The position numbers and the translations under genes were made by a program. From an uncultured Thermoplasmata archaeon (GTDB lineage: Archaea; Thermoplasmatota; Thermoplasmata; UBA10834): 64,000 nucleotides of DNA. Where the stretch lies: NCBI GenBank assembly GCA_963748615.1, contig CAVVJQ010000002.1:17718-81717 (forward strand). The letters run 5' to 3'. Under the pieces are notes generated by a model. It had not been told where the DNA came from, did no database searches, and saw only the letters and a program-made list of their open reading frames with translations. This document shows, in pieces, positions 17,735 through 52,449 of this stretch (position 1 is its first letter; each line of letters starts with the position of its first letter).

Positions 17735-18589
17735 ATGGCTTCCCTCGGCTTCTTGAGAAAGGTCACTATGAAAGGATGGGTGATCGGCGGAATACTCATC
17801 GCTGCTGGCGTGCTCTCCCTCGTGTTCGCATACAATACACATATGGACATCCTGCAGATGATGCCCACGACCGACCCGGCTGAGCTGCAGGAGATATCCG
17901 ACTTGCAGGATCTCCGAGGGATATGCATCAACCTCGCTTTCGGCACGCTCTTCGTTGGCATCTTCACGATATTCGTGATGACTGAACGCGCATTGCCTTC
18001 GGACATCGCGCAGAGACAGATGCTGTCCGAGGTGAGGATGACGAACGAGCTGGTCGCCAACTTAAACCTTGAAGGCTCTGCGGCCTATGTTCCGGCGAAG
18101 TACGCACTCACCAGGGAGAAGGTGATGATACCGTCCTCGGACTCGTCGCTGTCCCTTCCGATAATGACAGACGACCTCGTCTTCTCGCTCGGAGCGGACA
18201 GGGCCACTCTAGGCATATTCCTCACGCCACCAGGACTCGACCTCCTGGATGGTTTCGAGCGCGATCTCGCAGTATCGAACAAGGAGGTCGGACTCGAGGC
18301 TTTCGAGGGCAACATGCAGGTCGTGAAGCTTGGCTTCGGCCTGGTGAAGGATTTCAAGATCAAGGAGAGGGCAGGAGAGATCATACTCAGGGTCGAGCAC
18401 TCCATGTTCAAGGAGAGTTGCGATACGATCCGAGCACTCATGCCGAACGTGTGCAGACAGGCAGGATGTCCGATCTGTTCGGCCTTCTTGACGGGGATCG
18501 CGCGTTCGACAGGAAAAGTGACCAGGATATTGAGGGTCGAGAACGATACTGACCGGATACAATTCCACATGATATTGAGCGATTGGTGA
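17735..18589 (+). CDS. module 1 gene 1: N-terminally membrane-anchored protein with a conserved C-terminal 4-Cys motif (possibly V4R-like; family uncertain)
   Basis: TM segment WVIGGILIAAGVLSLVFAY. The C-terminal pattern CDTIRALMPNVCRQAGCPICS (C-x10-C-x4-C-x2-C) and the terminal ILSDW are shared with the paralogue at 45273..46121. A GGAG lies upstream of the ATG. Confidence 0.55.
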   Translation: MASLGFLRKVTMKGWVIGGILIAAGVLSLVFAYNTHMDILQMMPTTDPAELQEISDLQDLRGICINLAFGTLFVGIFTIFVMTERALPSDIAQRQMLSEVRMTNELVANLNLEGSAAYVPAKYALTREKVMIPSSDSSLSLPIMTDDLVFSLGADRATLGIFLTPPGLDLLDGFERDLAVSNKEVGLEAFEGNMQVVKLGFGLVKDFKIKERAGEIILRVEHSMFKESCDTIRALMPNVCRQAGCPICSAFLTGIARSTGKVTRILRVENDTDRIQFHMILSDW

Positions 18590-18647
18590 TTTTTCGAAGG
18601 CAGAACCTGTGATATAATCGCCATTGAAGTGAGTTATTTATATCCGC

Positions 18648-20846
18648 GTGTGCCTGAAGCGAAGTGTGTCCGTTCCTAGGGGGGTGACGGCGTGCTTGCT
18701 AGCGGTTGTTCTCTTGATGCCCGCAACCGCAGCGGCAGTAGCGGAGACGATTCCGCACGAGCAGTTCGACCAGGCGGAGCTAGATCTAGCGGTCCTGATG
18801 CTTCTGCTAGACGAGAGCCTCGGGCTCGCGACCGAATCGATATTGTCATGCGTTGCGGACGATGCCGTCGGCGCGATCACATATTCCGATAGACTACAGG
18901 AATCGCTCGCTGCGCCGACCGAGATCATAGACGACCTCTCCCACGATGTCGAGAGCTACGAGTTCCTGATAACATTCATACCACCGTTCGAGACGATGTC
19001 GGTCGACGATTCCTCGATAACCGAGACATATTCCATATTCTTCGATGAGCTGACAACGCTGAGGTTGCTCGCGGAGGAGGCGGTCCTCCCACCTGAGGTC
19101 TACGAATCGGGCATGGAGACCCTCGCATCGGCGACCGCATACGTGAAGGAACTGATACATCAGTTGGATGTCCTTGAGAAAGATGTCGATGCGATAGATG
19201 CTCTTCCGGAGATACCTGAACAGGGTACCCTTGATGTGCAGCCGCTCCTCGATGCGATCGCCCTATTGAGAGAGAGACTCGCTCAGTTGGAGATGGAACT
19301 CGAGCTGCTGGCCGAGAAGATACTGAACCCTGTCCCGCGCCTGTTCCTGGTGCTCAACGACGATTCAATGTACCTCGGCCAGACACTCATAATCACGGGA
19401 TACCTGTTCTACATGGGACAGTTCGTGCAGGACCTTGACGTGAATGTGCGCAGGGACGGGACTGATATTTCGAATATGAGCACAGGAGCATCTGGTAGGT
19501 TCTCGATCACATACTACATACCGATCGACCCGATTGAGCTGGGCACATACATTTTCGACGCGTCAACAGTCTTCAACGAGGTGGAGTATTGGTCTGAAGA
19601 GACACAACTCATCGTGCTCAAGATACCGACAAGCACGATCATGTATCCAGAGGACAGCTATGAGATTGGTCCTACAGCGACCATCGACGGGATGCTGGGG
19701 GATTATCTTGGTTCCGGACTCGTGGACCAGATCGTGAGCGTAACGATAGACTCGACGATCTTCGATTTCACGACGGATGATTCAGGCGGCTTCGAAGCCG
19801 TTATCGTCACTGCTAGCCTCGGATTCGGCCCTCACAATATATCCGCGACATATCCTGGAAATACTACTCATCAGGGTTCATCCACACCGGTCTACGAATT
19901 CCATCTGAAATATCCAGCAGTACTCACGCTGGACGTATCAGGTGATGAGTTCGAGATGGGTGACGAGATCGTGTTCAACGGAACTTTCACAAACATGTCC
20001 TGGGAGTGCATAGGTTCCGCGACGATTCGATTCATAATCGATGACAGATACTTCACGAGCACAATCACATCAGACAATGGCACCTATAAGATGACTGAGA
20101 ACTCCGAGGATATCGGGAAAGGGACCCATGTCGCTTTCGCCGAGCACGACGGCGTCGGGACTCCGTGGTTCCATACACGATCCGAAGAGGTCACCTTCAC
20201 TATCACTGAGAAGAAATCATCGAACATATTCCCAGGGATCGAGACCAGTCCAAAGGACATATTCGATTCGATCAAGGATTTCTTCACTGGACCCTTCCTT
20301 GATTTTCTCAAGAACGCCTTCTTCGGAGAGCTCGCATGGTTGGCATGGATGATCCTGGCATTACTCATCGTCCTTGCATACTATGGCTACAAGAGATTGC
20401 AGTTCCGCATATGGGCGAACCGCCTGAGACAGATGGACTCGCAGAGAGTCTCCATCTTCGAGAACAAAGTCGTCACTGCGAAAATGAGGCCTCTCTCAAC
20501 ATTGCCTGCAGCGCAGTCCAAGAGTCTGATGAAGGCGACACTGTGGAGGTTGATCGATACGCTCTTGGGCTCGATGCCGCCAAAGGACGCGGTCGTGATC
20601 GGGTATCAGAAGTTCATACAGTTCCTCAGGACCGATAGGGACGCCACCGTCGACAATAGCCTCACGCACAGAGAGATACAGACAGAGCTGGTCTTCATGG
20701 GCTACCCGAAAGAGACCATAGGCAAGGTGACCAATATCTACGAGAAGGCGATGTTCACCGATCGTGATGTGACCATCGAGGATGCGCTCGGGTTCGCAGA
20801 CTCACTTGCCGTGTTGGAGGGGTTCGGTAGGGCGGTGCCCGAATGA
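18648..20846 (+). CDS. module 1 gene 2: large exported protein with coiled N-terminal region, three beta-sandwich (carboxypeptidase-regulatory-like) units, a TM segment and a DUF4129-like cytoplasmic tail
   Basis: Signal-like LLAVVLLMPATAAAVA and late TM LAWLAWMILALLIVLAYYGY. The tail ...THREIQTELVFMGYPKETIGKVTNIYEKAMFTDRDV resembles DUF4129. It is colinear with paralogue 46180..48312. The start could be GTG 18684 instead, because a TATA-like box at 18635-18642 is very close to 18648. Confidence 0.6.
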   Translation: MCLKRSVSVPRGVTACLLAVVLLMPATAAAVAETIPHEQFDQAELDLAVLMLLLDESLGLATESILSCVADDAVGAITYSDRLQESLAAPTEIIDDLSHDVESYEFLITFIPPFETMSVDDSSITETYSIFFDELTTLRLLAEEAVLPPEVYESGMETLASATAYVKELIHQLDVLEKDVDAIDALPEIPEQGTLDVQPLLDAIALLRERLAQLEMELELLAEKILNPVPRLFLVLNDDSMYLGQTLIITGYLFYMGQFVQDLDVNVRRDGTDISNMSTGASGRFSITYYIPIDPIELGTYIFDASTVFNEVEYWSEETQLIVLKIPTSTIMYPEDSYEIGPTATIDGMLGDYLGSGLVDQIVSVTIDSTIFDFTTDDSGGFEAVIVTASLGFGPHNISATYPGNTTHQGSSTPVYEFHLKYPAVLTLDVSGDEFEMGDEIVFNGTFTNMSWECIGSATIRFIIDDRYFTSTITSDNGTYKMTENSEDIGKGTHVAFAEHDGVGTPWFHTRSEEVTFTITEKKSSNIFPGIETSPKDIFDSIKDFFTGPFLDFLKNAFFGELAWLAWMILALLIVLAYYGYKRLQFRIWANRLRQMDSQRVSIFENKVVTAKMRPLSTLPAAQSKSLMKATLWRLIDTLLGSMPPKDAVVIGYQKFIQFLRTDRDATVDNSLTHREIQTELVFMGYPKETIGKVTNIYEKAMFTDRDVTIEDALGFADSLAVLEGFGRAVPE

Positions 20847-22003
20847 TGCCATCACGGTTGAAGAGGTTCTACGCGCTGGCGGTCACGCTCGGACTTGCGT
20901 GCATATTCCTAGCGCTGTCACTAGTGGTGCCTGTAGTAGGGACGACCACGGACTTCAGCATATACAACGCAGGCTGGAACGGGACCAGCGGCCTCGCGGT
21001 GAGGACTTACAAGACGGGGGAGTTCGTGCCGGCCCTGGAGCTCAGAGGAACGGACGCTTCTATCGAACCGGCTATAATCGCACTTGATAGAGTTGAGCTC
21101 GATCCGCTCACGAGCAGCATAATCATCATCGGGCCTAGCAGGACATTCACGAAGGCGGACGGAGATTACATGTCGGATTTCCTGCAAGGAGGAGGGACAG
21201 TACTCCTCGCAGACGATTTCGGATCCGCCAACACGTTGCTCGCATACCTGGACACGAGCAGCAGGTTCACCAAGAACCTGGTCTTGGATCTGGCCTTCGA
21301 AAAGAAGCCCGAGTTCGTGGTCGCATACAACTTCGAGGAGAGCGACCTCACGGAAGAGGTCTCCACGATCCTGCTGAACTATCCGTCTTCCCTGAAGCCC
21401 AGTGCGAGCGCCGAGGTGCTGGCGACGACGAGCCAGGCAAGCTGGGTGGACCTGAACGACAACATGTACAAGGACGACAACGAAGTGTCTGGGCCGTTTC
21501 CGCTGCTGTCGGTCGAGCAGGTCGGAAAAGGCACTCTGATATTGCTGGCGGATCCGAGCATCCTGATAAACAGCATGTACGACCAGTTGGACAACTCGGT
21601 CCTGGTGGACAACATCTTGGCATTCCTCTCGGAGGGACGCACGGACATACTCATAGACGAGAGCCATAGGAACTTCTTCGACCCGCTCTCGTTCACTTCG
21701 AATGTTCTGATGGGCATAGGCGAGGATGCGAAGTTGGCACTCATAATCATCATAGTCGTCGCGTTCTTCCTCGCGACCACCGATGTGTTGCAGATGACCT
21801 GCCGATTCATACTCAAGTCGATGAATACAGCATGGAGCAGGGTCCTCAGAAAGTTCACCAAGGAACAGGCGACAATGCCAGATGCATTCTTGAACGATGA
21901 TGAGATCCTCCGCAGGGTGATGGAGAGGCACCCCAACTGGAACAAGGGAGTGCTGTCACACCTCATGCGTCAGCTGCAAAGACATGGAGCGGTGAAGAAA
22001 TGA
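20843..22003 (+). CDS. module 1 gene 3: DUF4350-like protein (N-terminal TM, extracytoplasmic domain, C-terminal TM plus short tail)
   Basis: Motifs DFSIYNAGWNGTSGLAV, VLLADDFGSANTLL, FEKKPEF and LNYPSSL are shared with 48302..49468. It overlaps its neighbours by 4 nt at both ends (ATGA-type coupling). Confidence 0.6.
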   Translation: MMPSRLKRFYALAVTLGLACIFLALSLVVPVVGTTTDFSIYNAGWNGTSGLAVRTYKTGEFVPALELRGTDASIEPAIIALDRVELDPLTSSIIIIGPSRTFTKADGDYMSDFLQGGGTVLLADDFGSANTLLAYLDTSSRFTKNLVLDLAFEKKPEFVVAYNFEESDLTEEVSTILLNYPSSLKPSASAEVLATTSQASWVDLNDNMYKDDNEVSGPFPLLSVEQVGKGTLILLADPSILINSMYDQLDNSVLVDNILAFLSEGRTDILIDESHRNFFDPLSFTSNVLMGIGEDAKLALIIIIVVAFFLATTDVLQMTCRFILKSMNTAWSRVLRKFTKEQATMPDAFLNDDEILRRVMERHPNWNKGVLSHLMRQLQRHGAVKK

Positions 22004-23466
22004 CCGATCCCAGCGAGAAGTCATTGCAGACCTCATCCCTCGGGATGGCACTCATGGCAACCTGCGCCGCGTTCGCAATTGCAGGGTTTCTCTTCATGAG
22101 TTTGTCATGGGTCATCGCAAGCGTCGTCATAACCACCATGATGGTCTATGCACATGAGAGGTTCGCATGGGAGCTATCCAACTCACGTCTCGATGTGAAA
22201 CACGAGATACTGAGTAAGATGGCCTTCGCCCAGGAGCCGGTCAGTGTCAAAGTCGAGATCAGAAACAAGGACCATACGCCACTCAGAGCTTCGCTTGAGG
22301 ATGTGCTACCGGAAGACTGCATCCTCGGAGCAGGGACCAACATACTCGATGCCAAAGTGCCTCCGCGTTCCATCAAGTCGTTCACGTACTCGTTCATACC
22401 GACGAGACGAGGGGGGCACACGATCGGCACACTAAAGATCACACGCACGGACCAGTTCGGACTGTTCACACACGTGCGATACTTCGAGGACGCCCAGCGA
22501 CTGGGCGTGCACACACAGAAGGAAAGCTTCGATGCGGCCAGGAAGACGGCGGGTAAGGAGCACTTCGAATATTCTGGCATGTTCAAGACCCCGGCTGTCG
22601 TGCTTCGTGAATTCCAGTTCGACGGGATAAGAGAGCACATCCCTGGCGACCGCTCGAGGGACATACACTGGAAGAGCCTGTCCAAGACCGGCAAGCTCAT
22701 GACGAAGATATACAAGAAAGAGGGCACTCTGAGGACCATGATATTCATCGACTGCAGTCGAAGCATGCGACTGGAGAAGGGCGGGTCGGCCAAGCTGAAC
22801 CACGCTGTGGACCTTGGCCTCCAACTCTCGAATGTGCTCATCAGCAGCTTCCACCCCGCAGGCGTGACGACATACGACGAGATCACGGTCACGGGGGAGG
22901 TGAGACCGTCGCTGGGGAAGCAACAGTTCGAGCGCATCACGAAGGTCCTCAGAGGGGTCCCGGGCACGATCATCGTCGATGATGAGGAGCAGCCACCCAA
23001 AAACGAGACGACCACGGCAGACCATTCCCCCGTGGCGATTCATGACCGCGGAACTGGCAGCGCGTTCCTGAATGCTGTGAGCGCAGTCAGACGGACGAGC
23101 GCCAAGAGGATGACAGGACTTGGACTCGAGAGCGTTGCGAAGGATATGATAGCCCACACAAAGAACCAGAAGTTGCTGTTCATAGTCGTCTCGGACCTGG
23201 TCTCCTCCAGAGATGCCGTCCTATCGACAGCTCGGTTATGCCAGCGGACCGGCAACAGGCTGCTGGTCATACAGACCTACGATGATTGGTACTCTTCGCC
23301 GGAGAGAGTCCTCGATTTCGCTGAAGGAGAACAGCTCTATGCAAAGCTGACAGAAGGGGTCAAGGTCGAGTCGGCGCTAAGGAGAGCAGGTGCGTCATTC
23401 ATGAGGATAGGTCCTGCGGACACCACGGTGAGGATAGTCAGAAGCATCAGGAAGGGGTTGACATGA
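22000..23466 (+). CDS. module 1 gene 4: DUF58 family protein (vWA-like, usual partner of MoxR ATPases)
   Basis: Signature region FQFDGIREHIPGDRSRDIHWKSLSKTGKLMTKIYKKEGTLRTMIFIDCSRSM. Two N-terminal TM helices are present. Confidence 0.8.
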   Translation: MTDPSEKSLQTSSLGMALMATCAAFAIAGFLFMSLSWVIASVVITTMMVYAHERFAWELSNSRLDVKHEILSKMAFAQEPVSVKVEIRNKDHTPLRASLEDVLPEDCILGAGTNILDAKVPPRSIKSFTYSFIPTRRGGHTIGTLKITRTDQFGLFTHVRYFEDAQRLGVHTQKESFDAARKTAGKEHFEYSGMFKTPAVVLREFQFDGIREHIPGDRSRDIHWKSLSKTGKLMTKIYKKEGTLRTMIFIDCSRSMRLEKGGSAKLNHAVDLGLQLSNVLISSFHPAGVTTYDEITVTGEVRPSLGKQQFERITKVLRGVPGTIIVDDEEQPPKNETTTADHSPVAIHDRGTGSAFLNAVSAVRRTSAKRMTGLGLESVAKDMIAHTKNQKLLFIVVSDLVSSRDAVLSTARLCQRTGNRLLVIQTYDDWYSSPERVLDFAEGEQLYAKLTEGVKVESALRRAGASFMRIGPADTTVRIVRSIRKGLT

Positions 23467-24026
23467 CCACTGTGAATGCGCATCTGAAGATTGCGGCCAC
23501 AGTGGCCTCGGCGAGTGTGATGCTCATATTCACGGAGGTCACGCTATCCACACTGATCCCGATCCTTGTGGGAGTCTCCCTGATAATATTGAGCGTAGGG
23601 ATGAGCTACAGACCACCAGCGGTCGTAGGCATCCTGACCATACTGGCGGTTTCCGCACTGGCCACCGACATCGCGACGCTCACTGATGCACGCAACCTTT
23701 TCGCGGCGACAGTGTCACTGTACGTGCCGTCCTTGATCATGATGTGGGCAGCGTTGTCGGCCGAGCGGGACGACGACTATGAACTCAGGATGATGACGAG
23801 ACCGTTCGGACGGTTCGTCATCGCTGCAATCGTGTGCCTGCTGAGCGTTCCGGTGTTTGCCGTGGTTCTTGGCATCCTGCAGCCGAGCATGTCGATGCGC
23901 CTATCGACCATGGCAGAGATGTCACTGCTGCTGCTCGTGACCTCGACGACAGCATTCCTCCTCGCAAGGTCATCGCCCGATTCGCTCAATGCCGAAGCGG
24001 AGGCGGAACAAGAGATCTCCGAGTGA
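23463..24026 (+). CDS. module 1 gene 5: polytopic membrane protein (4-5 TM), unknown family
   Basis: 187-aa hydrophobic ORF whose start overlaps the DUF58 stop. It has the same position and architecture as 52450..52959 in module 2. Confidence 0.55.
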   Translation: MTTVNAHLKIAATVASASVMLIFTEVTLSTLIPILVGVSLIILSVGMSYRPPAVVGILTILAVSALATDIATLTDARNLFAATVSLYVPSLIMMWAALSAERDDDYELRMMTRPFGRFVIAAIVCLLSVPVFAVVLGILQPSMSMRLSTMAEMSLLLLVTSTTAFLLARSSPDSLNAEAEAEQEISE

Positions 24027-24079
24027 TACTGACCATGGACGATATCGTCGTTTTACATCCTGAAGCGCGCGCGAACAAT

Positions 24080-24089
24080 CATTATATAC
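24080..24089 (+). promoter_or_regulatory. TATA-like box upstream of the archaeosortase gene
   Basis: cattatatac lies about 25-30 nt upstream of the TTG at 24114. This fits an archaeal TATA/leaderless arrangement. Confidence 0.4.
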
Positions 24090-24113: not shown

Positions 24114-25106
24114 TTGAGACTCAAGGGTGAATGGCTCCTGCTGTTGGGGTCTATGCTTGTTGCAGGGGCGTTGTACAATCACTACATGGGGCACTCCGCC
24201 CTTCTGGTCGAGATAATCATGGTGGCCGTGGGATGTGCCATGGCCATCTATTCGGCGATGCTGCTCAAGGTCCCTGAGGATGAGGAAGCCCATGGGATCC
24301 TGATCGATCTGATGTCACGATTCATCTCCAGGGAACGATGCAGGATGCTCATACCCATGCTGGGATTCCTCCTGCTATTCTTATGGTCGACCTGGAAGAT
24401 ACTCGTGAACGGCGAAACCAACCTGCAGATGGAGGACTTCATAGTCACCTTGCTGGGGCTTTCCCTGGTGGTATACTACTCGGGCCCGAGCGCGTTCGCA
24501 GAAGTGAAGGACTTCGTGGTCCTGTACCTGATGTTCCTCACGATAGTCTTCGTCATCATCTGGCGCACCTACTACTTGGTGACCGGGGAGTCGCACTATG
24601 AGATCACATCCTATGCGGAGCATTACTTCGTGACACTTCCCGTCGTCAATCTGCTCGGACTGCTGGGATTCCATGTCACCGCGGTCCTCGAACTCGACGG
24701 CATCGGTCTGGCGAACATCATAGAGTATGTCCACGATGGGCGGCTGCTCAGACTCGGGATAGGCGTCGGGTGCAGCGGCCTCTATTCAGCAGGCCTGTTC
24801 TTCTCGGCATTCCTCGCATTCGTGCTCGTGCGGTATCGAAAGATGAGTGCGCGCGTCGGCATCGGTTTGGGGATTGGGCTGCTTGTCACCTGGGCATCCA
24901 ACATAATCAGAATGGCCATCACGATCATGGTAGGGATAGCATACGGCCATCCCGCGCTCGCGTTCGTACATGCTTACATCGGGATACTCATATTCGTGGG
25001 ATGCATCACGGTCTTCTGGATCCTCATAGTCAGGTGGCTTGACAAGACGGAGAAGATCCATACGGGTCCAGATATTCCGACGGTCGAGACATCACCAGCG
25101 GACTGA
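24114..25106 (+). CDS. archaeosortase (exosortase/archaeosortase superfamily); PEF-CTERM-associated ArtC-type is the most likely subtype
   Basis: Polytopic 330-aa protein with the three hallmark sites in order: Cys in GVGCSGLYSAG, Arg in ASNIIRMAI, His in FVHAYIGILIF. Two PEF-CTERM-type proteins are encoded 6-7 kb away. Confidence 0.8.
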   Translation: MRLKGEWLLLLGSMLVAGALYNHYMGHSALLVEIIMVAVGCAMAIYSAMLLKVPEDEEAHGILIDLMSRFISRERCRMLIPMLGFLLLFLWSTWKILVNGETNLQMEDFIVTLLGLSLVVYYSGPSAFAEVKDFVVLYLMFLTIVFVIIWRTYYLVTGESHYEITSYAEHYFVTLPVVNLLGLLGFHVTAVLELDGIGLANIIEYVHDGRLLRLGIGVGCSGLYSAGLFFSAFLAFVLVRYRKMSARVGIGLGIGLLVTWASNIIRMAITIMVGIAYGHPALAFVHAYIGILIFVGCITVFWILIVRWLDKTEKIHTGPDIPTVETSPAD

Positions 25107-25111: not shown

Positions 25112-25729
25112 TCAGAAGAGTGAGTCGTCATCGATCTCCTCGTTGTCCATGAGCCGCTTGAGTTTCATGGCGGAGATGATCCGGTCCTCGGGTGGGATCA
25201 GTTCCGATGATGCACCCTTATGGAGTTCGTGAACGGTGTCGCGATACACTGACCTGCTCAACACGCCCTGGATGAGTTCACGTTCTATCATCTCACCGTA
25301 ATCGATATCGTCCTCATCTGGCGCATCGGGCGTCTTGACCATGATCCGACCAGGCGCGATTGTTCCTGGCGTTCCAGCGCTGGCGGAGATGTTGGGCACC
25401 TGTCCAAGGATGGTCTGGCGACCATATGACCAGGGTCTCCCTCTGACCACCGGGGGCTTGTCGACTGCAGCTGCGTCCGTATGCGCACTCGACCTCGCAT
25501 CATATTCCTCCTTTGCTGGAAGCGCAGTCTCTCGAACAGACGATGACCGCCTTGGCCAAATGTCGCGATACGAAAACCCGGTTTCCGATCTCCCTCTGTT
25601 CATCATGAACAGGACCAGGATGAAGATCGCTGCGATGATGGATGATATCGAGATGATGCCTGCGAGCGAAGTGAACCATGATCCGCTGGATCCACCCGAT
25701 AGCGTACTCCACCTCAACAGCGGATACAT
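25112..25729 (-). CDS. TM segment plus ~160-aa acidic cytoplasmic tail; probably the detached C-terminal anchor of the upstream subtilase
   Basis: N-terminus GGSSGSWFTSLAGIISISSIIAAIFILVLFMMNRGR (N-out, C-in by the positive-inside rule). The start overlaps the subtilase stop region. The tail ends in DNEEIDDDSLF. Confidence 0.5.
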   Translation of the reverse strand: MYPLLRWSTLSGGSSGSWFTSLAGIISISSIIAAIFILVLFMMNRGRSETGFSYRDIWPRRSSSVRETALPAKEEYDARSSAHTDAAAVDKPPVVRGRPWSYGRQTILGQVPNISASAGTPGTIAPGRIMVKTPDAPDEDDIDYGEMIERELIQGVLSRSVYRDTVHELHKGASSELIPPEDRIISAMKLKRLMDNEEIDDDSLF

Positions 25730-28700
25730 GTTCGCTCTCCACGACAGTTGCCGGCCAGATCGTACACAGATACATAGACGTCCATGCCGTCCCAGAGCAC
25801 TTGCGAAGGCAATGTGGCCGTCAGCTCGGACCCGGACAGAGTCATCGGTATCGAACCGTAGCCTCCATCCTTCAGCTCGTAGTACACCACGCCTTCGGCG
25901 ATCCCGAAGTCGTCCGTGGCGGTTATCGTGAGAACGAGCGTACCACCGGTCACGAACTCAACTGGTCCAGCCAGCTGAGTCTGCGGCGGGGTCCCGTCAA
26001 TGTATATCGAGAGCTCGTTTACCGTTATACGCCCGGACATGTCAGTGGCGACCAGGACGAGTGCGTGCCATCCGAGGGTCAGCGCATCCGTTTCGATGAT
26101 CATCCCGGGATAACCTGTCACGGCATCGCCCCCGTCGAACGATAGGGTCACCGTCTTCAGGTGGCTGTCGCTCGCCTGAAGCACCATATCCTCGCCTTCC
26201 ATTATCGACTCGCCCGATGCGACTCCGACGATGCCTGTGACGGGGTCGTACAAGTCCATCGTGAAGGCGAAGGAGTCCTCGGCAGTGTTGTCTGCGAGAT
26301 CGTATGCGAAGACGTTCATCGAGAAGGAACCGTCGATGTTCACCGACGAAAGGGATACCGTGAATGTGCCGGAACTGGTCGTTTCGGATATGCCCAAAAC
26401 GCTCCAAACGGCGTAATCCATATTATCATCTGTGACCTGGAACGATACAATATCGCCAGGGGTGACATATGCGTCAATCTCGGGCCATATCAGGGATATC
26501 TCCGGTGGCGTGTCATCTATCGTGAAAGAGAACGAGAACTCCGACGATCCACCGATGTCGTCCGCAGCATTGACCGATATGTCGTAGGCACCTTCATCCC
26601 ACCCTTCGGTGGATATGATGTAGGGAGTTGGAAGGATGGACCATGGGCCTCCGTCGCTCCATGAACAGGTGATGTTGCCCGAGCTGTATATCAATATCTG
26701 CAACGGGGTACCTGAGTGGACATAGGAGCCGTCCTCCGGGCTGGCGAGCATCGCCACGAGGGTCGCGTTCACGATCTCAAAGTAGACTGATGTCGAACTC
26801 TCGTGTCCGACCGAGTCCATGGCAGTGGCCACGACCACGTGCATCCCGATGGCCCAACCAGTCATGTCGACCACGTACGGCGATGGGATGGTCACGAAGT
26901 CCGAGTCGTCGACCGAATATGCCACGGTCGATAGGTGCGAGTCAGACACGCTGATCACTATGCTGAACCCTATCGGGACCTGGCTCGCCATGATCGGCTG
27001 GATGATCTCCAGTTCGGGCGCGGATGCATCGACATCGAATGAATAGGATGCCGTCACGGTGAACCCGTCGTCGTCCATCACGGTGACTGCCAATGAGTGC
27101 ACCGCGTCGCTCCAGGAGGATGTGGATATGTCCCACGGCTCCGCCAGGGTGACATATGAGCCCCCGTCGACCGAGTACAACACTTCCACTTCGCCGTCAT
27201 CGATGACGTCCAGGTCTATGATGGCACCAGAGGCTATCAGGGAGCCGTCCTCAGGCGACACCAGCTCGATGACTGGCGCCACCGCGTCGCTCATGATGGA
27301 TGTAAGGGTGAAAGTGATGGTGACCGATTCGTATATCCCCAGATCGAAAGTGGCTGTGACCTGCACATTCTGCCCGGTGCCCGTGAACAGGCTCGTCGGG
27401 TTCAACATCCACTGGAACAGTATCTGGCCGTCGTGCGTATGAGTCGTGCCCAGGACATAGTCGTCGAGCAGCATGGCGACCTTGCGGTCGCCGGAGTACA
27501 GCTCGATCGGGACCGCTGCCGTCGGGCTGAGCGGGTTCCCGGACATGTCCGTGAGCTGACCTTCCAGCACCACCGTGACGGTCGCGTCCCTGTATTCCAC
27601 GGTGGATGTCTTCGGTGCCAGCTCGAACACGACTGGTATCTCGGGGAGCGAAGCCGAGGTGATGACTGCGGACATGTAGTTGGAGTACGAGTCCGTGACA
27701 ATGATCATGAGGTCTATGGATGTGGTGGCAGTGGTCGTCTGAATGGATGTGCTGTATGTGCTACCAGAGGACGATACTGCAAGGGACTCCCACGAATCGG
27801 TCGAGCCTGCGCGCCAGCTGATGGCAACCGAGACCGAAGACATCGTATCGATCACATCCAGTGACAGCGCGACCGCAGATCCCGGGACGAACCGCTGAGA
27901 CATCTCGAGGCCGGTCACCATGGGAGGGTCGCGGTCGACTGACGGGACCGAGAACCCTAGCTCCATCGCGACATTGCTGGAGATCTCGGATGTGGGTGAG
28001 TAGCTGATCCTCGCCTCATAGGAACCTTCGCCGAACAGGTCGAGCACGCGCTGAGCATCGGGCCTTGCCAGATACTCCGAGAGCTGGTATATCCCGACCA
28101 AACCCCCGTTACGGTACAGGTTCATGGAAGGGATGACCGTCCCGCCCACGCGTGCACCTGATTGGTCACGGAGGAGTGGATGATAGAGGACCATTGTATC
28201 TTCAGTGTTCTCTGTGAACAGTGACGGGTAGAACGGACCCGACCCGAGCCTCTGCTCCTCGAACGTCGGGTCGAGCGGTGTGACATAATTCCTGTCAGGG
28301 ATGTAGATGCCTGCCGCGACCGCTGCCTGGAGAACATAGTCGTAGTCGGCGACGAAGAACTGTCTCTCCGAGTACCCACCCATCACGTTCCTGGGGAAGT
28401 ACAGCTCGGAGAAGGTACCAGTCACGATCGTCGTCCTGGTCAGGCCTGAGAAGAACGGGTTGAGCGATGTATCAGTATCCCTCCGGATATAGAAGGTAGC
28501 GTCCCCGCCCATCGCCTTGTGGGTGCCCCAGTTGCACCAGGGGTCGGAGACCGTCCCTGGGATGTCATACTTGGTCTCGAACACGGCCGCATCGTCCTCG
28601 TCCCAAGTCAGCGTGGAAGGCATCGACGAGTCGATGCTGTCGAACTCCCATGCGAGCAAGTACTGGAGGTCCGCGCTCGCCTCGACCATGAATGCGGTCG

Positions 28701-31065
28701 ATGTGCCACTGGTCATCTCATACCAGTGTTGCCAGTTGAGGCTCATGAAATCCCACATGTCGGGAGTGTACGCGAACCCGGCGATAGATATGCCAATCTC
28801 GGCGGAGGTGTCGCTGACATAGAGAGTCATCGAATGGGGTATCGCGAACACCTCTGAGCCCACTATCGAATAATCCGAACCTGTGAGATCGAACGATATG
28901 TTCCTGGAACCCTCGTACCTGCAGTATACCCTGTAGTCCTTGACATAGATCGGCTGGCCACCATCTGTCTCGAGGTCGAGGGTCACCTCATGCGCGTCGG
29001 CCATGTAGATGTTCAGTTCGACTGTCTCGAGCATGCCGACACTGACCGTATCGGATAACACGTAGGCATCCGAGTAGGTGTACAGGAGTTGATGGCCCAT
29101 CGAATGGACCGCGTATGATCCTGACGGGAGGAAGAACGTGGCCGGCGGCACGGCGCTTATCATGCCCCGGTAGCCCATGGCAAACGACGCATCTGGGAGG
29201 TCATACACCCAAACGCCTCCGTAGGGGTCGAACACTTCCCGTCCGGACATGTCGTACACATGGACGTTCAGAGTGCTCAGGATGACGAACCCGAACGGTA
29301 TGGTCAGATGGCCAGTGCTAGCCTCCATCTCCAGTGTGCCTGCGTAGTAGCCCTCGTCGATCAAGGCCGCAGGAAGGTCTACTGTGAGCGTGACAGACCC
29401 CGAGCCTCCGGAGGGAATAGACAGTGAAACGGGAGACGAGCCTGACAGATCGGTCTGAACCGGGTCTGGCAGAGAGCCATTGGCTGTGAGCGAGAAGAAG
29501 TCGACCGAGGATATCGCGAACGATGCCGACGAGCCGGTGTTAGTGACCGACACGGTCTGCGATGAGGAGCCTGCGAGCCCATAGGAAATGAGTGGCGTGG
29601 ACGAGAACATGGTGGCCTCCGCAGCTCCAGGAGCCCACATCCCGCCAGCACCGGCAGCCCATAGCGATTCGTTGAGCAGCAAAGCACCGCTCACCACCGC
29701 CGACTTCACGTATGATGGTGTCCAATCAGGGTGCAACTGGAGCAGCAACGCGACGGCACCGCTCACATGAGGTGTAGCCATGGATGTGCCGCTCAGGCTG
29801 GCATATCCAGTCGGTGAGCTTATGACAGTGCCTGAGAAGGGCACGGTGGACACGATATCCACGCCTGGAGCCGATATCTCGGGCTTGACATTCATCTCGG
29901 GAGTGGGCCCGCGCGAGCTGAAGGGTGCGAGGTTACCATCGCCGTCCACGGCTCCGACCGTGATCGCGCTCGGCGCAAGTCCTGGTGTCGCGACGGTCCC
30001 CAGGGATGGGCCCTCGTTTCCGGCTGCGACGACGACCACCACCCCGGCATCAACGGCCCGCTCGACTGCCTGGCAGACAGGGTCGTCCGTGCCACCTGCA
30101 CCACCTAGGCTCATGCTGATGATGTCCGCGTGATCGCTCGTGGACCCGTCACCATCAGGGTCCATGGCCGCATCGATCGCTTCTATGACATCGCTCATGC
30201 TGCCAGAGCCGCTCGCCCCCAGCGCCTTGTACGCCAGAAGCTTGGCATCAGGTGCCACGCCAGGCACAGTCCCGTCAGCGGCTATCGTGCCGGCGACATG
30301 GGTGCCATGACCGTTATCGTCCATAGGGTCGGCGTCGTTGTTCACGAAATCGTATCCGCCGATGACCTTGTATGATGGGCCGAACCCACCGCCCAGGTCG
30401 GGGTGCATGTAATCGATGCCTGTGTCGATGACAGCCACCACTATACCCACGCCTGTGACCGATACGCCCAATGGATCGGTCATGACCCAGACCTCGTCCG
30501 CGCCTATCTTGCGGACGCCGTCTGTGCCAGTCGCGTTGAGTGCTAGGTCAGGATATATGCTGAGGCTCGGTTCCGACTGGATCAAGGATTCGATAGTGCC
30601 CAGGTCCAGGCGGGCGGAGAAGCCGTTCAGGCTGTGTGTGAATGTCTTCAGCGAAGAGACTGGTTCAAGCGGGTCATCGTTCTGTGCCCTAAGGGCGGAT
30701 GCAGAAGCATACTGGATTGCTTTCGCGAGAGGCGCGAAGTCATCGACATCATACGGAAGCGAGACGATCACGTCCACATAACCGTCGTCGTCCGCGAGTG
30801 CGGACCAGTCCCATGAACAGGCAGATGCGGGATATTCGTATGAGTCAGTGGCGCGTGACACATCCATGTCGGCACCACCGGCGGATGATAGGATGGACGA
30901 ACTGACGATAGCGAAGGATGAGAGTGAAAGAATGAACACGACGAGAAGTGGGAAGAGCCGCCCGGCTATCACACCCCTCTCGGGGGATGTCCTCAGGAGC
31001 AGACCCCTATTCCCGTGGGCCTCCGATAGTGACGGGTTATCTCTATACAAGAGTGACATCTCCAA
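25714..31065 (-). CDS. giant subtilisin-like serine protease (peptidase S8) with propeptide and a long array of Ig-like domains
   Basis: Catalytic triad motifs VAVIDTGIDYMHPDL (Asp), HGTHVAGTIAA (His) and SGTSMATPHVSGA (Ser), with oxyanion Asn in VVAAGNEGP. There is an N-terminal signal anchor. More than 1100 aa of beta-rich repeats follow (for example AYDLADNTAEDSFAFTMDL). Confidence 0.9.
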   Translation of the reverse strand: MEMSLLYRDNPSLSEAHGNRGLLLRTSPERGVIAGRLFPLLVVFILSLSSFAIVSSSILSSAGGADMDVSRATDSYEYPASACSWDWSALADDDGYVDVIVSLPYDVDDFAPLAKAIQYASASALRAQNDDPLEPVSSLKTFTHSLNGFSARLDLGTIESLIQSEPSLSIYPDLALNATGTDGVRKIGADEVWVMTDPLGVSVTGVGIVVAVIDTGIDYMHPDLGGGFGPSYKVIGGYDFVNNDADPMDDNGHGTHVAGTIAADGTVPGVAPDAKLLAYKALGASGSGSMSDVIEAIDAAMDPDGDGSTSDHADIISMSLGGAGGTDDPVCQAVERAVDAGVVVVVAAGNEGPSLGTVATPGLAPSAITVGAVDGDGNLAPFSSRGPTPEMNVKPEISAPGVDIVSTVPFSGTVISSPTGYASLSGTSMATPHVSGAVALLLQLHPDWTPSYVKSAVVSGALLLNESLWAAGAGGMWAPGAAEATMFSSTPLISYGLAGSSSQTVSVTNTGSSASFAISSVDFFSLTANGSLPDPVQTDLSGSSPVSLSIPSGGSGSVTLTVDLPAALIDEGYYAGTLEMEASTGHLTIPFGFVILSTLNVHVYDMSGREVFDPYGGVWVYDLPDASFAMGYRGMISAVPPATFFLPSGSYAVHSMGHQLLYTYSDAYVLSDTVSVGMLETVELNIYMADAHEVTLDLETDGGQPIYVKDYRVYCRYEGSRNISFDLTGSDYSIVGSEVFAIPHSMTLYVSDTSAEIGISIAGFAYTPDMWDFMSLNWQHWYEMTSGTSTAFMVEASADLQYLLAWEFDSIDSSMPSTLTWDEDDAAVFETKYDIPGTVSDPWCNWGTHKAMGGDATFYIRRDTDTSLNPFFSGLTRTTIVTGTFSELYFPRNVMGGYSERQFFVADYDYVLQAAVAAGIYIPDRNYVTPLDPTFEEQRLGSGPFYPSLFTENTEDTMVLYHPLLRDQSGARVGGTVIPSMNLYRNGGLVGIYQLSEYLARPDAQRVLDLFGEGSYEARISYSPTSEISSNVAMELGFSVPSVDRDPPMVTGLEMSQRFVPGSAVALSLDVIDTMSSVSVAISWRAGSTDSWESLAVSSSGSTYSTSIQTTTATTSIDLMIIVTDSYSNYMSAVITSASLPEIPVVFELAPKTSTVEYRDATVTVVLEGQLTDMSGNPLSPTAAVPIELYSGDRKVAMLLDDYVLGTTHTHDGQILFQWMLNPTSLFTGTGQNVQVTATFDLGIYESVTITFTLTSIMSDAVAPVIELVSPEDGSLIASGAIIDLDVIDDGEVEVLYSVDGGSYVTLAEPWDISTSSWSDAVHSLAVTVMDDDGFTVTASYSFDVDASAPELEIIQPIMASQVPIGFSIVISVSDSHLSTVAYSVDDSDFVTIPSPYVVDMTGWAIGMHVVVATAMDSVGHESSTSVYFEIVNATLVAMLASPEDGSYVHSGTPLQILIYSSGNITCSWSDGGPWSILPTPYIISTEGWDEGAYDISVNAADDIGGSSEFSFSFTIDDTPPEISLIWPEIDAYVTPGDIVSFQVTDDNMDYAVWSVLGISETTSSGTFTVSLSSVNIDGSFSMNVFAYDLADNTAEDSFAFTMDLYDPVTGIVGVASGESIMEGEDMVLQASDSHLKTVTLSFDGGDAVTGYPGMIIETDALTLGWHALVLVATDMSGRITVNELSIYIDGTPPQTQLAGPVEFVTGGTLVLTITATDDFGIAEGVVYYELKDGGYGSIPMTLSGSELTATLPSQVLWDGMDVYVSVYDLAGNCRGERTCIRC

Positions 31066-31260: not shown

Positions 31261-31743
31261 CTACTTGCGTCTCCAAACGAGAAGGCCGACCGCGATCACG
31301 CCCACGCCCAAGCCCGTGACGAGGACTCCGGCATCGGACCCTAGCTCGGGTATCGCATATAAGAAGTGCACATCGACGTCGAACTGGCTCGAGTCATCGG
31401 CGATCGTGGAGTTCGACGCCTGGCCTGCGGGTCCGGTTGCGATCACCTGTATGGTGTATCCAATCTCCCATTCGGCTGAGAGGAAGAGCCTGAGGTATTC
31501 GCCGTTCGAATCCGAGGTGGCCGTCTTTGTGGTCACGATCGATGCTCCGTCCTTGATGTTGATTGTGATCGGGATATCGGGTATCAGGGTGCCTTCCGAA
31601 TCGAAGATGAAGCCGGTGACGGACATCGGATGGCTCGCTGCGGCACAGTTGCTCGGTACGGCCATGGTCAATGCGATCAGTGTGATTGAGGCTACGAACC
31701 CGATGGAGAGCATCGCGGTGAAGAGTCTTCTAAACATGTTCAT
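31261..31743 (-). CDS. small secreted protein with a PEF-CTERM-like (PEL variant) sorting signal
   Basis: Signal peptide, a single carboxypeptidase-regulatory-like beta-sandwich (VTGFIFDSEGTLIPD...SDSNGEY), and the C-terminus YAIPELGSDAGVLVTGLGVGVIAVGLLVWRRK. Confidence 0.7.
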   Translation of the reverse strand: MNMFRRLFTAMLSIGFVASITLIALTMAVPSNCAAASHPMSVTGFIFDSEGTLIPDIPITINIKDGASIVTTKTATSDSNGEYLRLFLSAEWEIGYTIQVIATGPAGQASNSTIADDSSQFDVDVHFLYAIPELGSDAGVLVTGLGVGVIAVGLLVWRRK

Positions 31744-31881: not shown

Positions 31882-32376
31882 CTAGAGTGCCTTGCGCCGC
31901 TTCATCGAGATGAGTGCGACCAAACCGATCAATGTCGCAGAGACGATGATCCCAAGGGTGCTGCCGAACTCAGGTATGGCATATGCGAAATGCACGTCGA
32001 TCTGCAGGACAGGGGTCACGGTTGCCACGCCAGTCTCGCTATCCACGAGTGTGCTGTATGTCGCAGTGGTCTCGACCGTGTCGCCAGCAAGCCAAACGTC
32101 GAGTGGGAATGTCACGTCGTATCTGCCGTTTGAATCAGTCGTATCAGACAAAGTGGCTCCCGTCCTGAGGACTTCAACGAGAACGCTCGCACCTTCGATG
32201 GGCAATCCCTCGCTATCGTAGATAAAGCCATAGACCACGAGCGGAGCAATTCCCGCAGCGGCGTCATCAGCAGCGTATTGTATAACCATGAGCCCGAGAA
32301 CGATGGAGAGAGACACGACTGCGGTCATCCTCCAGCATTTCAGAGTGTTGAGAGTCATGTTGTCACTATCACCCAT
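31882..32376 (-). CDS. small secreted PEF-CTERM protein (archaeosortase substrate type)
   Basis: The C-terminus YAIPEFGSTLGIIVSATLIGLVALISMKRRKAL has the PEF motif, a TM helix and a basic tail. It is a paralogue of 31261..31743. Confidence 0.75.
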   Translation of the reverse strand: MGDSDNMTLNTLKCWRMTAVVSLSIVLGLMVIQYAADDAAAGIAPLVVYGFIYDSEGLPIEGASVLVEVLRTGATLSDTTDSNGRYDVTFPLDVWLAGDTVETTATYSTLVDSETGVATVTPVLQIDVHFAYAIPEFGSTLGIIVSATLIGLVALISMKRRKAL

Positions 32377-32451: not shown

Positions 32452-32901
32452 TCATCCTGTGGCTTGTTCGAAGTACACTGACGCGGGCCCGTCGAGTATC
32501 ACGAAGTACGCCCTGCCCTGGGTGACGGTGAAGTCACTATCAGAGCCAGAATCGTGGAACCCGGGTATGAAGCTCTTGTACGTGCCCGACTCAGGATCGA
32601 AGTACGATATCGCATACACCCTCGCGCCATGTATCGCATCTGCAATCGAGCTCGCGGTCGTCGGGGCAAGTTCCGTGTATCCCATTATGTTGACACCGCT
32701 GCTCAACGCGCCGACTGCATTCGCAGGCAGATCGCCAATCAGCGTGAACACAACCTCGCCGCTAGTGGTCAGGAAGTATCCGACGCCCAGTTCGATCTCG
32801 AAGTCGTCTTCAACATCGCCTGGGGTGTGGAACCCAGGTATGAAGCTCTTGTAGGTTCCGTTGACTGTGTCGAACTTGCTGATCGAAAGCAGCGTCAGGT
32901 C
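32452..32901 (-). CDS. C-terminal module of the giant adhesin (two copies of an unassigned ~70-aa domain containing YKSFIPGFH), in the +1 frame relative to ORF 32810..39283
   Basis: The frame is open from 32901 (just after an in-frame TAG at 32904..32902) and reads DLTLLSISKFDTVNGTYKSFIPGFHTPGDVEDDFEIELGVGYFLTTSGEVVFTLIGDL...ISYFDPESGTYKSFIPGFHDSGSDSDFTVTQGRAYFVILDG. The ORF track lists only the last 99 aa (32452..32751). Confidence 0.55.
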   Translation of the reverse strand, partial: DLTLLSISKFDTVNGTYKSFIPGFHTPGDVEDDFEIELGVGYFLTTSGEVVFTLIGDLPANAVGALSSGVNIMGYTELAPTTASSIADAIHGARVYAISYFDPESGTYKSFIPGFHDSGSDSDFTVTQGRAYFVILDGPASVYFEQATG

Positions 32902-44906: not shown

Positions 44907-45198
44907 ATTCTTGGCCTCCCCTCATCTCCACGCCGAGACGCGAACTTTTCCCCCCCTTCGAGGAACCACCCGCGTTGGTCAAAGCATGGAGCCGAGCCGA
45001 CGTATCTTGCTCAATGATATTAACCTTGCCGCTGAAATGTACTATACTGACTGCATCGTCCGGGAACACGGAATCAGCCCACCTTATGATTGGAAATTCC
45101 ACAGCTTTGTACATTGCCAATAGATCGGTCATGGACGCTCCGAACCGATTCAAAACGAGCAACTTCGAAGGTACAATCGATCTGTAATACTCACCCAT
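44896..45198 (-). CDS. hypothetical small protein immediately upstream of, and overlapping, the adhesin start
   Basis: 100-aa ORF (MGEYYRSIVPSKLLVLNRFGASMTDLLAMYKAVEFPIIRW...) of ordinary composition, ending 11 nt inside the adhesin ORF. No motif recognised. It could be spurious. Confidence 0.3.
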   Translation of the reverse strand: MGEYYRSIVPSKLLVLNRFGASMTDLLAMYKAVEFPIIRWADSVFPDDAVSIVHFSGKVNIIEQDTSARLHALTNAGGSSKGGKSSRLGVEMRGGQEYGK

Positions 45199-45210
45199 CC
45201 CTCACCTTCG

Positions 45211-45222
45211 GGATATATACAA
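45211..45222. promoter_or_regulatory. TATA-like box in the divergent region between the adhesin locus and module 2
   Basis: ggatatatacaa. It lies ~50-60 nt upstream of the proposed module 2 start and ~15-25 nt from the minus-strand small ORF start. Orientation is ambiguous. Confidence 0.35.
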
Positions 45223-45272
45223 ATTCCTGTTCGACGTTGACCATAATCCGAGGGAGCCTGCTGAAGGTAAAG

Positions 45273-46121
45273 TTGAGAGGAAGGGATATCGAGATAGCAG
45301 GGGCTAGCCTGGTAGGGGTCGCTCTTGCCTTGGTCGGTGTCTTCCTACTTATCTTGATGTTTCAAAACCAATCGCAGATAGATGAGATCGGTGAGACGAC
45401 CGACCCGCTCCTGCTGGAGGAGCTGGCAGATCTCCGAGACTCGAGGGACGTGTACATGGTCTCAGCGATCGGGTTCTTGTTCCTGGGCCTTTTCGGAGTG
45501 TTCATACTGTCAGAGAGGAGCGTCCCGACCAAACTCTCTGAGTCGCAGATGCATGGGGCCGCCAGGATGGCGCATGACTTCATCGCAGGTCTTTCGCTCG
45601 GCGGAAACGCATCCTACCTACCAGCCAGGAACGGCCTGACCAAGGAGCGGTTGTTCATTTCAGCGACTAAGGGAGAGAGCGTGCCCCCAGCTGCTGTCTC
45701 GGACGACCTTACAGTGTCTCCAGGAAGTGATGGTTCGACTCCGGGCATGATCGTGGAGCCGTTGGGTCTTGAAATGTTGAACAACATCCAATCGGAGAGC
45801 GGCGTGACCTTCGAAGGCATAGGACTCGAGGCTACGGAAGGTGCGTTGCAGGTGCTCAGATACGATCATGGTATCATCAAGGATTTCCACTTCAAGGAGA
45901 GAGAGGGAAAGACCATCCTACGCGTGGAGTACAAGGAGCTGCTCGAGACTTGCAGGAGAGTGAGGAAGGAGATGCCTGACACCTGCAGGCAGATGGCCTG
46001 CGCAGGCTGCGCGTGCATCCTCACGGCCGCAGCGAGGGCCACGGGCAAAGTGGTCGCGGTCGAGGAAGTCGATGTCGACAAGGACATGGTCGTCTTCACA
46101 CTGAACCTCAAGGACTGGTGA
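45273..46121 (+). CDS. module 2 gene 1: paralogue of 17735..18589 (TM anchor plus C-terminal 4/5-Cys motif)
   Basis: TM LVGVALALVGVFLLILMF. The C-terminus is CRRVRKEMPDTCRQMACAGCACILTAAARATGKV...LNLKDW. The ORF track starts at 45090, but alignment to the paralogue and the TATA position favour the TTG at 45273. The start is uncertain. Confidence 0.55.
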   Translation: MRGRDIEIAGASLVGVALALVGVFLLILMFQNQSQIDEIGETTDPLLLEELADLRDSRDVYMVSAIGFLFLGLFGVFILSERSVPTKLSESQMHGAARMAHDFIAGLSLGGNASYLPARNGLTKERLFISATKGESVPPAAVSDDLTVSPGSDGSTPGMIVEPLGLEMLNNIQSESGVTFEGIGLEATEGALQVLRYDHGIIKDFHFKEREGKTILRVEYKELLETCRRVRKEMPDTCRQMACAGCACILTAAARATGKVVAVEEVDVDKDMVVFTLNLKDW

Positions 46122-46179
46122 CCGGCTGGATGCCGCCAAGGCGTCATGTTTAATACCGCAATCGGAGGTTCGCTAAAAG

Positions 46180-52438: not shown

Positions 52439-52449
52439 GAGAGAGCTCC

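Follow-up and report, generated by a model that had tools for sequence, protein, structure and literature searches.

A candidate archaeosortase with IPEFG-tailed putative substrates in a probably nested surface-protein island of an uncultured Thermoplasmata archaeon

An archaeosortase-family gene lies at positions 24114-25106 of a 64,000-nt (64-kb) stretch of contig CAVVJQ010000002.1 from an uncultured Thermoplasmata archaeon (hereafter the window), and its surroundings raise the question of which neighbours it works with. On the same strand it follows a row of genes for DUF7982, DUF4129, DUF4350, DUF58 and multi-transmembrane (multi-TM) proteins, and two small proteins with sorting-signal-like tails are encoded some kilobases downstream. 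The original prediction, drawn from the window alone, had regarded the gene as the last one of a module without MoxR, and its product as the ArtC-type partner of PEF-CTERM substrates. Based on comparison with related loci, we consider a different explanation likely: the gene would encode a probably active archaeosortase of an unnamed clade, transcribed from its own promoter and situated in a surface-protein island of approximately 28 kb that is nested in a paralogous module, with the products of two adjoining genes, d1 (DUF58) and e1 (a membrane protein), as its partners.

When the translation was scanned with NCBIfam profiles, the exosortase/archaeosortase signature TIGR04178 matched residues 216-309 with 38.3 bits (cut-off 23). 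The motifs GCSG, NIIR and FVHAYIG were all found in the protein as predicted, and their residues Cys220, Arg266 and His286 were invariant in an alignment of 30 sequences with identities down to 24%; the absence of these residues upon alignment had been proposed as grounds for rejecting the assignment. The hydropathy profile of the protein showed seven peaks, as expected for a polytopic membrane protein, and an AlphaFold2 (AF2) model built with 30 clade members as input (predicted template-modelling score 0.81) was polytopic, with nine long helices plus a small beta-sheet. In the model the sheet is located ahead of Cys220, while Arg266 and His286 are located in the last two long helices. No solved structure resembling the enzyme was found, either by sequence or by fold, and no second sortase was found in the window. 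By its signature match and its ordered Cys/Arg/His residues, the open reading frame (ORF) is, as judged from its sequence, a real archaeosortase-family enzyme. The protein is probably an active cysteine transpeptidase that spans the membrane several times; Cys220 is its candidate nucleophile, alongside Arg266 and His286.

The homologues start at the residue that matches the TTG codon of the window gene, and TTG, GTG or ATG was kept at this position in 17 relatives. Between the stop of e1 (24026) and the sortase start there is a gap of 87 nt (24027-24113). The TATA-like box that had been noted in this gap is real (Table 1), and an equivalent transcription factor B recognition element (BRE)/TATA element was present approximately 20-30 nt 5' of the sortase start in 17 of 17 relatives. 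The conservation of both the element and the start codon indicates that the sortase gene has its own promoter and that the long TTG start is correct. An alternative gene call of 317 aa (P0001) is probably too short, and the sortase transcript is probably leaderless or very short-leadered.

The two putative substrates, PEF1 and PEF2, are encoded 6.2 kb and 6.8 kb from the sortase gene, in agreement with the predicted distance of 6-7 kb. Both begin with a signal-like helix and carry a single Ig-like/CarboxypepD_reg domain each. Their tails consist of AIPELGS (PEF1) or AIPEFGS (PEF2), followed by 21-23 residues free of Lys and Arg and then by RRK or KRRKAL, respectively. A six-frame search for this tail pattern recovered PEF1 and PEF2 as the sole matches in the window, and in approximately 300 kb of related loci it recovered orthologous positions only, which is beyond chance. 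Tail genes were present in all main-lineage loci that reach at least 7 kb downstream of the sortase (11/11, the window included), which bears out the proposal of a sortase-substrate locus. Over 23 distinct tails, the motif I-P-E-F-G was kept with I in 23, P in 23, E in 21, F in 22 and G in 19, although the carrier proteins were just 33-55% identical. These statistics were drawn from the loci; the PEF2 homology search itself gave three non-self matches. The PEF tripeptide opens the tail of PEF2 (IPEF), and PEF1 has IPEL at this position. The core of the AF2 model of PEF2, a prealbumin/CnaB-like sandwich, had a predicted local distance difference test score of approximately 86-97. Its top match in the PDB was SlaB (8qox_B, E 3e-5), the membrane stalk of the Sulfolobus S-layer, but this likeness is just suggestive because the fold is generic.

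The neighbourhood of the sortase gene was resolved by comparison with loci that lack the island. In L021, L022 and L023, the genes a1-b1-c1-MoxR-d2-e2 are contiguous between the same flanks as in the window. L021 is the closest backbone relative (flanking genes 79-95% identical), and in blastn it was collinear with the window to exactly 22003, the stop of c1, and resumed at 49873. The terminal 151 bp of c1 were present at both places; the relic that forms the right copy was 85.4% identical to the c1 end of L021, the intact left copy 77.5%. The order in the window is accordingly a1-b1-c1, then d1-e1-sortase-island-a2-b2-c2-DUF8044, then relic-MoxR-d2-e2. In L025 and L024 (643-kb contig), MoxR-d1-e1-sortase-island is followed by a2-b2-c2, DUF8044 and DUF1616. 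Independently assembled contigs from two public runs (X1, X4) cross both joints (21931-22100 in X1; 49737-49981 and 49795-49945), thus indicating that the nested arrangement is not an assembly chimera. The sole MoxR gene of the window (AAA_3, 205 bits) lies in module 2, with none in module 1, and it is of the host type, with 91% identity to L021 and 47-69% to the sortase-linked MoxR proteins.

These comparisons point to an island of approximately 28 kb (about 22000-49872) that lies nested in a paralogous host module, with its own MoxR lost. Module 1 is accordingly a recombination chimera, an evolutionary junction artefact and not a functional unit, and modules 1 and 2 are each half host and half island. 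Only d1 and e1 travel with the sortase; a1-b1-c1 belong to the host module whose MoxR half lies 28 kb downstream. The DUF4350 and DUF4129 copies that co-occur with the sortase in relatives are those of a2-b2-c2, which close the island on the side away from the sortase (45090-49468). A recent duplication of module 2 as the origin of module 1 was ruled out, the paralogues being just 24-42% identical. A pattern search of GTDB genomes for orthologues of the module-1 DUF4350 gene returned module-2-like loci only, and a protein search then gave the true orthologues.

The unit most tightly coupled to the sortase was determined from 16 related loci of uncultured Thermoplasmata, in which the sortase was 54-86% identical. 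The trio d1-e1-sortase was present in 16 of 16. In these loci, genes for a Grx-like protein, MoxR, DUF58, a 5-TM protein and the sortase are arranged in this order on the + strand, followed on the - strand by the subtilase, two IPEFG proteins, a 99-aa domain and the giant SdrD_B-repeat protein. MoxR was located directly 5' of d1 in all 14 related loci with a readable upstream region and was absent there in the window, so that the lack of MoxR is peculiar to the window genome and does not characterise the system. The original prediction was right in finding no MoxR gene in module 1 and wrong in taking that module for a unit. Its proposed coupling to DUF58, DUF4350 and DUF4129 stood for the DUF58 gene d1 and fell for the others, since DUF7982, DUF4129 and DUF4350 were found upstream of the sortase in none of the 16 related loci. 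In locus L008, a run of N (8087-8731) masks the N-terminal part of DUF58 and anything preceding it, so the presence of MoxR is unreadable there.

No Pfam family was found for e1, but it aligned end to end with e2 (HHalign probability 87%, E 4e-6). The canonical metal-ion-dependent adhesion site (MIDAS) motif DCSRS was present in every d1 copy examined, whereas d2 has DCGRS (window, L021 and L022). When all module genes were typed as M1-like or M2-like, the d1 and e1 types were restricted to loci with the sortase (16/16), and the d2 and e2 types to loci that lack it. As a negative control, 28 loci of outgroup ArtC-like sortases were located with an alignment of seven outgroup sequences, and none of them had MoxR, DUF58 or DUF4350 within 10 kb. 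By these data d1-e1-sortase, normally with MoxR, is the tightest unit, specific to the clade and independent of context.

It is rather unlikely that the sortase and the IPEFG substrates act alone, with d1-e1 (and MoxR) being an unrelated envelope module that is adjacent by inheritance. The trio persisted while the sortase diverged to 54% and e1 to 28-30% identity, and it occurred in two different downstream contexts: L008, a second paralogous copy in chromosome CP070748.1, kept d1-e1-sortase with all other neighbours changed and unrelated genes downstream. It is also intact across the recombination joint of the window, which falls exactly ahead of d1 and leaves the three genes together, and d1 (with its MIDAS intact) and e1 make up a paralogue class of their own that was seen only alongside the sortase. 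What speaks for adjacency by inheritance is the independent promoter of the sortase, the fact that ArtA, in the literature consulted, needs no MoxR or vWA partner (PMC7157517), and the negative control, since 28 outgroup sortases without such neighbours imply that sortase activity in general needs none of them. Furthermore, the whole clade is a single cluster at 50% identity, so the synteny could partly reflect shared ancestry.

The genes that accompany the sortase resemble a known system. Makarova et al. 2015 (PMC5898192) described DUF4350/arCOG01314 together with MoxR, Ig-vWA, Ig-like surface proteins, DUF1616 and small multi-TM proteins as a predicted secretion or membrane-remodelling system, and the description of the arCOG01314 system there includes no sortase. 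In the window, c1 and c2 matched DUF4350 (PF14258) with 58.8 and 60.1 bits and have N- and C-terminal hydrophobic segments, d1 and d2 matched DUF58 (PF01882) with 40.4 and 44 bits, and e1 and e2 have 5-6 and five hydrophobic segments, respectively. The gene at 56390-57364 is 90% identical to an L021 gene annotated as PF07760 (DUF1616). The parts list is the same as that of arCOG01314, with one complete copy (split, and with the host-type MoxR) and one copy that lacks MoxR, none being adjacent to d1. In the window clade, however, a paralogous vWA and 5-TM pair is dedicated to an archaeosortase, and the module of the window is rearranged around a cargo block of subtilase, IPEFG proteins and giant adhesin. 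No mention of an archaeosortase together with MoxR, DUF58 or the arCOG01314 system was found in the literature searched.

For the explanation that we favour, an unnamed-clade archaeosortase with d1 and e1 as partners, we infer cleavage, lipid anchoring and cooperation with d1, e1 and MoxR as follows. By analogy with ArtA, PEF1 and PEF2 would be exported by Sec and retained in the membrane by the C-terminal helix, and the sortase would cut at or near IPEFG via a thioester at Cys220. An amine, in all likelihood that of a membrane lipid, would then accept the new C-terminus, so that Ig-like 'stalk' proteins would be held by lipid on the surface of a cell without a wall. In the least certain step, d1 (a vWA protein with an intact MIDAS) and e1 would act as dedicated partners in the same surface-assembly pathway, with an island-specific MoxR ATPase normally driving them; d1, e1 and MoxR would then be a paralogous copy, specialised for this task, of the arCOG01314 'putative secretion system'. 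The presence of the subtilase and the CnaB-repeat protein of approximately 4,100 aa beside the sortase suggests a surface-adhesin assembly unit.

Several results weigh against this explanation. The full-length match of the enzyme to PF09721 (Exosortase_EpsH, residues 55-306, E 3.3e-5) reached 23.8 bits, below the gathering score of 25.7; a precomputed PF09721 match was present on several close homologues. Among the subtype models, ArtC (TIGR03762) scored highest, with 53.7 bits against a cut-off of 100, and no match to the ArtE or ArtA models was found in the NCBIfam scan. TIGR03024 (PEF-CTERM) gave no match on the window tails even at E<=10, and these tails were recognised by none of the curated sorting-signal models scanned. 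In the L008/L012 sub-lineage, no gene with a PEF tail was found within 10 kb of the sortase, so substrate adjacency is not universal. The separate promoter of the sortase gene also means that it need not be co-transcribed with d1-e1. Base composition gave no signal of a foreign origin of the island (GC content at third codon positions 0.72 vs 0.70, p = 0.47), and the direction of the event may be either an insertion of the island here or its loss from L021-like genomes by recombination between the two 151-bp repeats.

The scores of relatives place the enzyme more precisely. The ArtC alignment covers only profile positions 79-271 and begins at residue 99 of the enzyme; the clade representative P0095 scored 49 bits on the same model. 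In a search against 1.84 billion representatives, all clade members fell into one cluster at 50% identity. The full-length relatives that came next were 31-36% identical and also below the ArtC cut-off (48-73 bits). The tails of relatives gave at most 11.9 bits with TIGR03024 (cut-off 23), and TIGR04296 (PEFG-CTERM, the signal of ArtE) gave a single match, on one relative's tail, with 7.2 bits (cut-off 25). By these profile scores the enzyme is of an unnamed ArtC-related clade, ArtC-like but no member by the curated tests, and the clade, so far as its homologues indicate, is restricted to a single lineage of uncultured Thermoplasmata. The sortase and the IPEFG signal appear as a distinct, co-diverged pair that is like ArtC/PEF-CTERM and fails both curated tests. 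Classification with the NCBIfam models, which had been proposed as a check, thus upheld the superfamily, and the ArtC/PEF-CTERM identity of the original prediction held only as far as the top-scoring subtype and the PEF core of the tails.

With ArtC (TIGR03762) and PEF-CTERM (TIGR03024), the system of the window shares the superfamily signature, the ordered Cys/Arg/His and the closest subtype, as well as tails built of a PEF core, a TM helix and a basic cluster. It differs in that the enzyme reaches only about half of the ArtC cut-off and the IPEFG(S) tails 0-12 bits against a cut-off of 23, in that identity falls to 31-36% between the clade and all other representatives, and in its MoxR-DUF58-5TM context, without counterpart at the 28 other ArtC-like loci. 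Several outgroup ArtC-like archaeosortases (P0245, P0246, P0247 and P0308) are extended at the C-terminus by a cytoplasmic part in which a CxxC...CxxC pattern resembles a zinc ribbon, and the window clade is without this extension.

Read literally, the window would hold a bona fide ArtC as the last gene of a functional operon, DUF7982-DUF4129-DUF4350-DUF58-5TM-sortase, which works without MoxR and in which the adjoining DUF4350 and DUF4129 proteins present or lipidate the substrates. The six genes do lie on one strand, with 4-nt overlaps at c1/d1 and d1/e1, ArtC is the top-scoring subtype, the tails carry PEF or PEL, and ArtC and PEF-CTERM are an established pair according to those passages of PMC5244752 and PMC6098224 that cite Haft 2012. 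However, a1-b1-c1 stand beside the sortase in 0 of 16 related loci and with MoxR-d2-e2 in L021-L023 instead, c1 and d1 meet at the recombination joint, and what is left of a second c1 end lies 28 kb downstream, and the sortase has its own conserved promoter, in addition to the low ArtC score and the unmatched tails described above. This literal version is already largely refuted by synteny and is very unlikely.

The condition of the island in the window genome is a further point against the explanation that we favour: with its own MoxR missing, its reading frames broken and one substrate motif changed, the island may be impaired here. The giant gene and the subtilase gene are single ORFs in L025 and L024; in the window the former is broken at approximately 39323 and 32893 and the latter at approximately 25735, leaving products of 1918, 2157 and 99 aa and of 1783 and 205 aa, respectively. 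Each break is confined to a single site, homology continues across it, and none lies in a homopolymer. PEF1, with IPELG, is the sole case of F-to-L among the 23 distinct tails, and an island-type MoxR (MoxR_Y) is absent. In the backbone, compared with L021, the window is without approximately 1.5 kb of an SBP_bac_5 gene (at about 9084-9086), leaving ORFs 9027-9878 and 8581-9054, and the second GT4 glycosyltransferase gene is shortened and split (55410-56139). Taken together, these data give a modest chance that the island is a decaying remnant, nested, with MoxR lost, cargo frameshifted and a substrate motif mutated, and perhaps nonfunctional in this genome, which would be compatible with the favoured explanation for the clade as a whole. 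On the other side, the ORFs of the sortase, d1, e1, PEF1, PEF2, a2, b2 and c2 are intact, with key residues conserved, and the metagenome-assembled genome of L005 shows a similar fragmentation of the same genes. The two public runs with the source DNA have a depth of only approximately 2-4x and gave no contig over the frame-break sites; the breaks may be real or assembly errors, which reads at this depth cannot separate.

Table 1. Positions, strands and distinguishing properties of the features discussed (window coordinates)
Feature	Position	Strand	Properties
Archaeosortase-family gene	24114..25106	+	330 aa, TTG start; TIGR04178 match; C220/R266/H286
BRE/TATA-like promoter element	24072..24089	+	AACAA 24074-24078, TTATATA 24082-24088; ~29 nt ahead of TTG start
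d1, sortase-linked DUF58 (Ig-vWA) paralogue, left island edge	22000..23466	+	PF01882 40.4 bits; MIDAS DCSRS intact
e1, sortase-linked membrane protein	23463..24026	+	5-6 hydrophobic segments; diverged e2 paralogue
PEF1, putative substrate	31261..31743	-	Signal peptide, one Ig-like/CarboxypepD_reg domain, IPELGS, TM, RRK
PEF2, putative substrate	31882..32376	-	Signal peptide, one prealbumin/CnaB-like domain, IPEFGS, TM, KRRKAL
Subtilase (Peptidase_S8)	25112..31065	-	C-terminal TM and cytoplasmic tail; two ORFs (25714-31065, 25112-25729), one 1981-aa ORF in L025
Giant SdrD_B/CnaB-repeat surface protein	32452..44906	-	Three ORFs (39150-44906, 32810-39283, 32452-32751), one 4135-aa ORF in L024/L025
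Island genes a2 (DUF7982), b2 (DUF4129), c2 (DUF4350)	45090..49468	+	45090-46121, 46180-48312, 48302-49468; Pfam; 57-64% to L024 orthologues
DUF8044-like small membrane protein	49478..49732	-	Right island end as in L024
Host half 1: a1 (DUF7982), b1 (DUF4129), c1 (DUF4350)	17735..22003	+	78-93% aa identity to L021, there directly ahead of MoxR-d2-e2
Intact c1 3' end, left copy of the 151-bp duplication	21853..22003	+	c1 stop overlaps d1 start (ATGA)
Decayed relic of the c1 3' end, right copy of the 151-bp duplication	49873..50023	+	In-frame TAG; abuts MoxR start
Host half 2: MoxR, d2 (DUF58), e2 (5-TM)	50020..52959	+	50020-50994, 51017-52438, 52435-52959; 91%, 89% and 76% aa identity to L021

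Tails of related build were also seen outside the sortase clade. In five outgroup Thermoplasmata loci (L037 and L041-L044), a tail protein of approximately 320 aa where complete adjoins an ArtC-like sortase, approximately 1 kb upstream of it. Its tail reads VPEFGPG (SEFG in L037 and L041), followed by TM and RRKK, and those of L042 and L044 reached 21.9-22.1 bits on PEF-CTERM (cut-off 23). The island-free locus L022 encodes a 1013-aa protein (1617-4658, - strand) with a C-terminal PEF2-like domain and AEIPEFVG, TM and RRRR, so such genomes should carry a cognate sortase elsewhere. A third tail, GP(V/A)GPW followed by TM and RK(T/M)KTK, was near-identical on three SBP_bac_5/Big_13-type surface proteins, namely 8581-9054 (-) and 10019-14758 (-) of the window and 1114-3864 (-) of L021; on TIGR01167 (LPXTG anchor) such tails scored 16.4 against 15.9 bits, over the TM and basic part only. 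As a sorting signal the GPxGPW tail with TM and RKxKTK (8581-9054, 10019-14758) was rejected, since the orthologues in L004 and L005 end otherwise and the weak matches cover only the TM and basic part; it may simply anchor the proteins in the membrane, or else serve as a sorting signal of very local range.

Three further features of the backbone were recorded. The gene at 10019-14758 encodes an extra paralogue of 1579 aa that is not present in L021. The DUF8044-like small membrane proteins are two paralogues, the one at the island end (Table 1) and one in the backbone at 58357-58602 (-). An MttB-family (trimethylamine methyltransferase-like) protein is encoded at 7090-8538 (+) by a single uninterrupted ORF of 482 aa that is 95% identical to L021, and it forms the conserved left flank in all relatives.

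The system of the window can be set beside two other sortase systems. In ArtA of Haloferax volcanii (PGF-CTERM, PssA, PssD), the thioester at Cys173 is resolved by archaetidylethanolamine (PMC7157517). By analogy, the chemistry of the window enzyme would probably be the same, with a Cys thioester and a lipid amine giving lipid-anchored proteins, and in both cases accessory genes are syntenic with the sortase, as in artA-pssA-pssD of Methanosarcina. The signal differs (PGF vs IPEFG), and so do the accessory proteins, which are lipid-synthesis enzymes for ArtA and MoxR, vWA and 5-TM proteins here. The likeness to the sortase-pilin/adhesin clusters of Gram-positive bacteria (LPXTG, CnaB pilins) is one of analogy only, a transpeptidase being encoded beside small CnaB/prealbumin-fold proteins with tripartite tails and a giant CnaB-repeat adhesin. 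There the enzyme is non-homologous and the signal another, whereas the archaeon has no cell wall and no sign of polymerisation was seen.

To our knowledge, ArtA is the only archaeosortase that has been studied experimentally, and for the other subtypes enzyme and signal have been matched in silico. What appears to be new here is that an archaeosortase/IPEFG clade without a name sits within a copy of the arCOG01314 module that has become specialised; the module itself is conserved across many archaea and has been predicted to be a new secretion system. As the curated models miss both the enzyme and the IPEFG signal, annotation pipelines label these proteins only generically. The nested island is also an example of a recombination joint that looks like an 'operon' as long as only a single genome is read. 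The gene context is the weightier point: an archaeosortase is tied to a dedicated vWA/DUF58 and multi-TM pair, normally with MoxR, and a sortase with two small, easily assayed putative substrates beside an arCOG01314-type module offers a concrete handle on the function of that module. A bolder proposal, which we hold to be improbable, is that the arCOG01314 system is a surface-protein assembly machine and that in this Thermoplasmata lineage an archaeosortase has become an integral subunit of a paralogous copy. The MIDAS-bearing d1 would be remodelled by MoxR, d1 and e1 would hand IPEFG proteins to the sortase, and the lipid-anchored (or perhaps protein-ligated) products would form a membrane stalk displaying the adhesin of approximately 4,100 aa after processing by the subtilase. 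If true, this would be the first accessory-factor-dependent archaeosortase and would give the arCOG01314 system a function.

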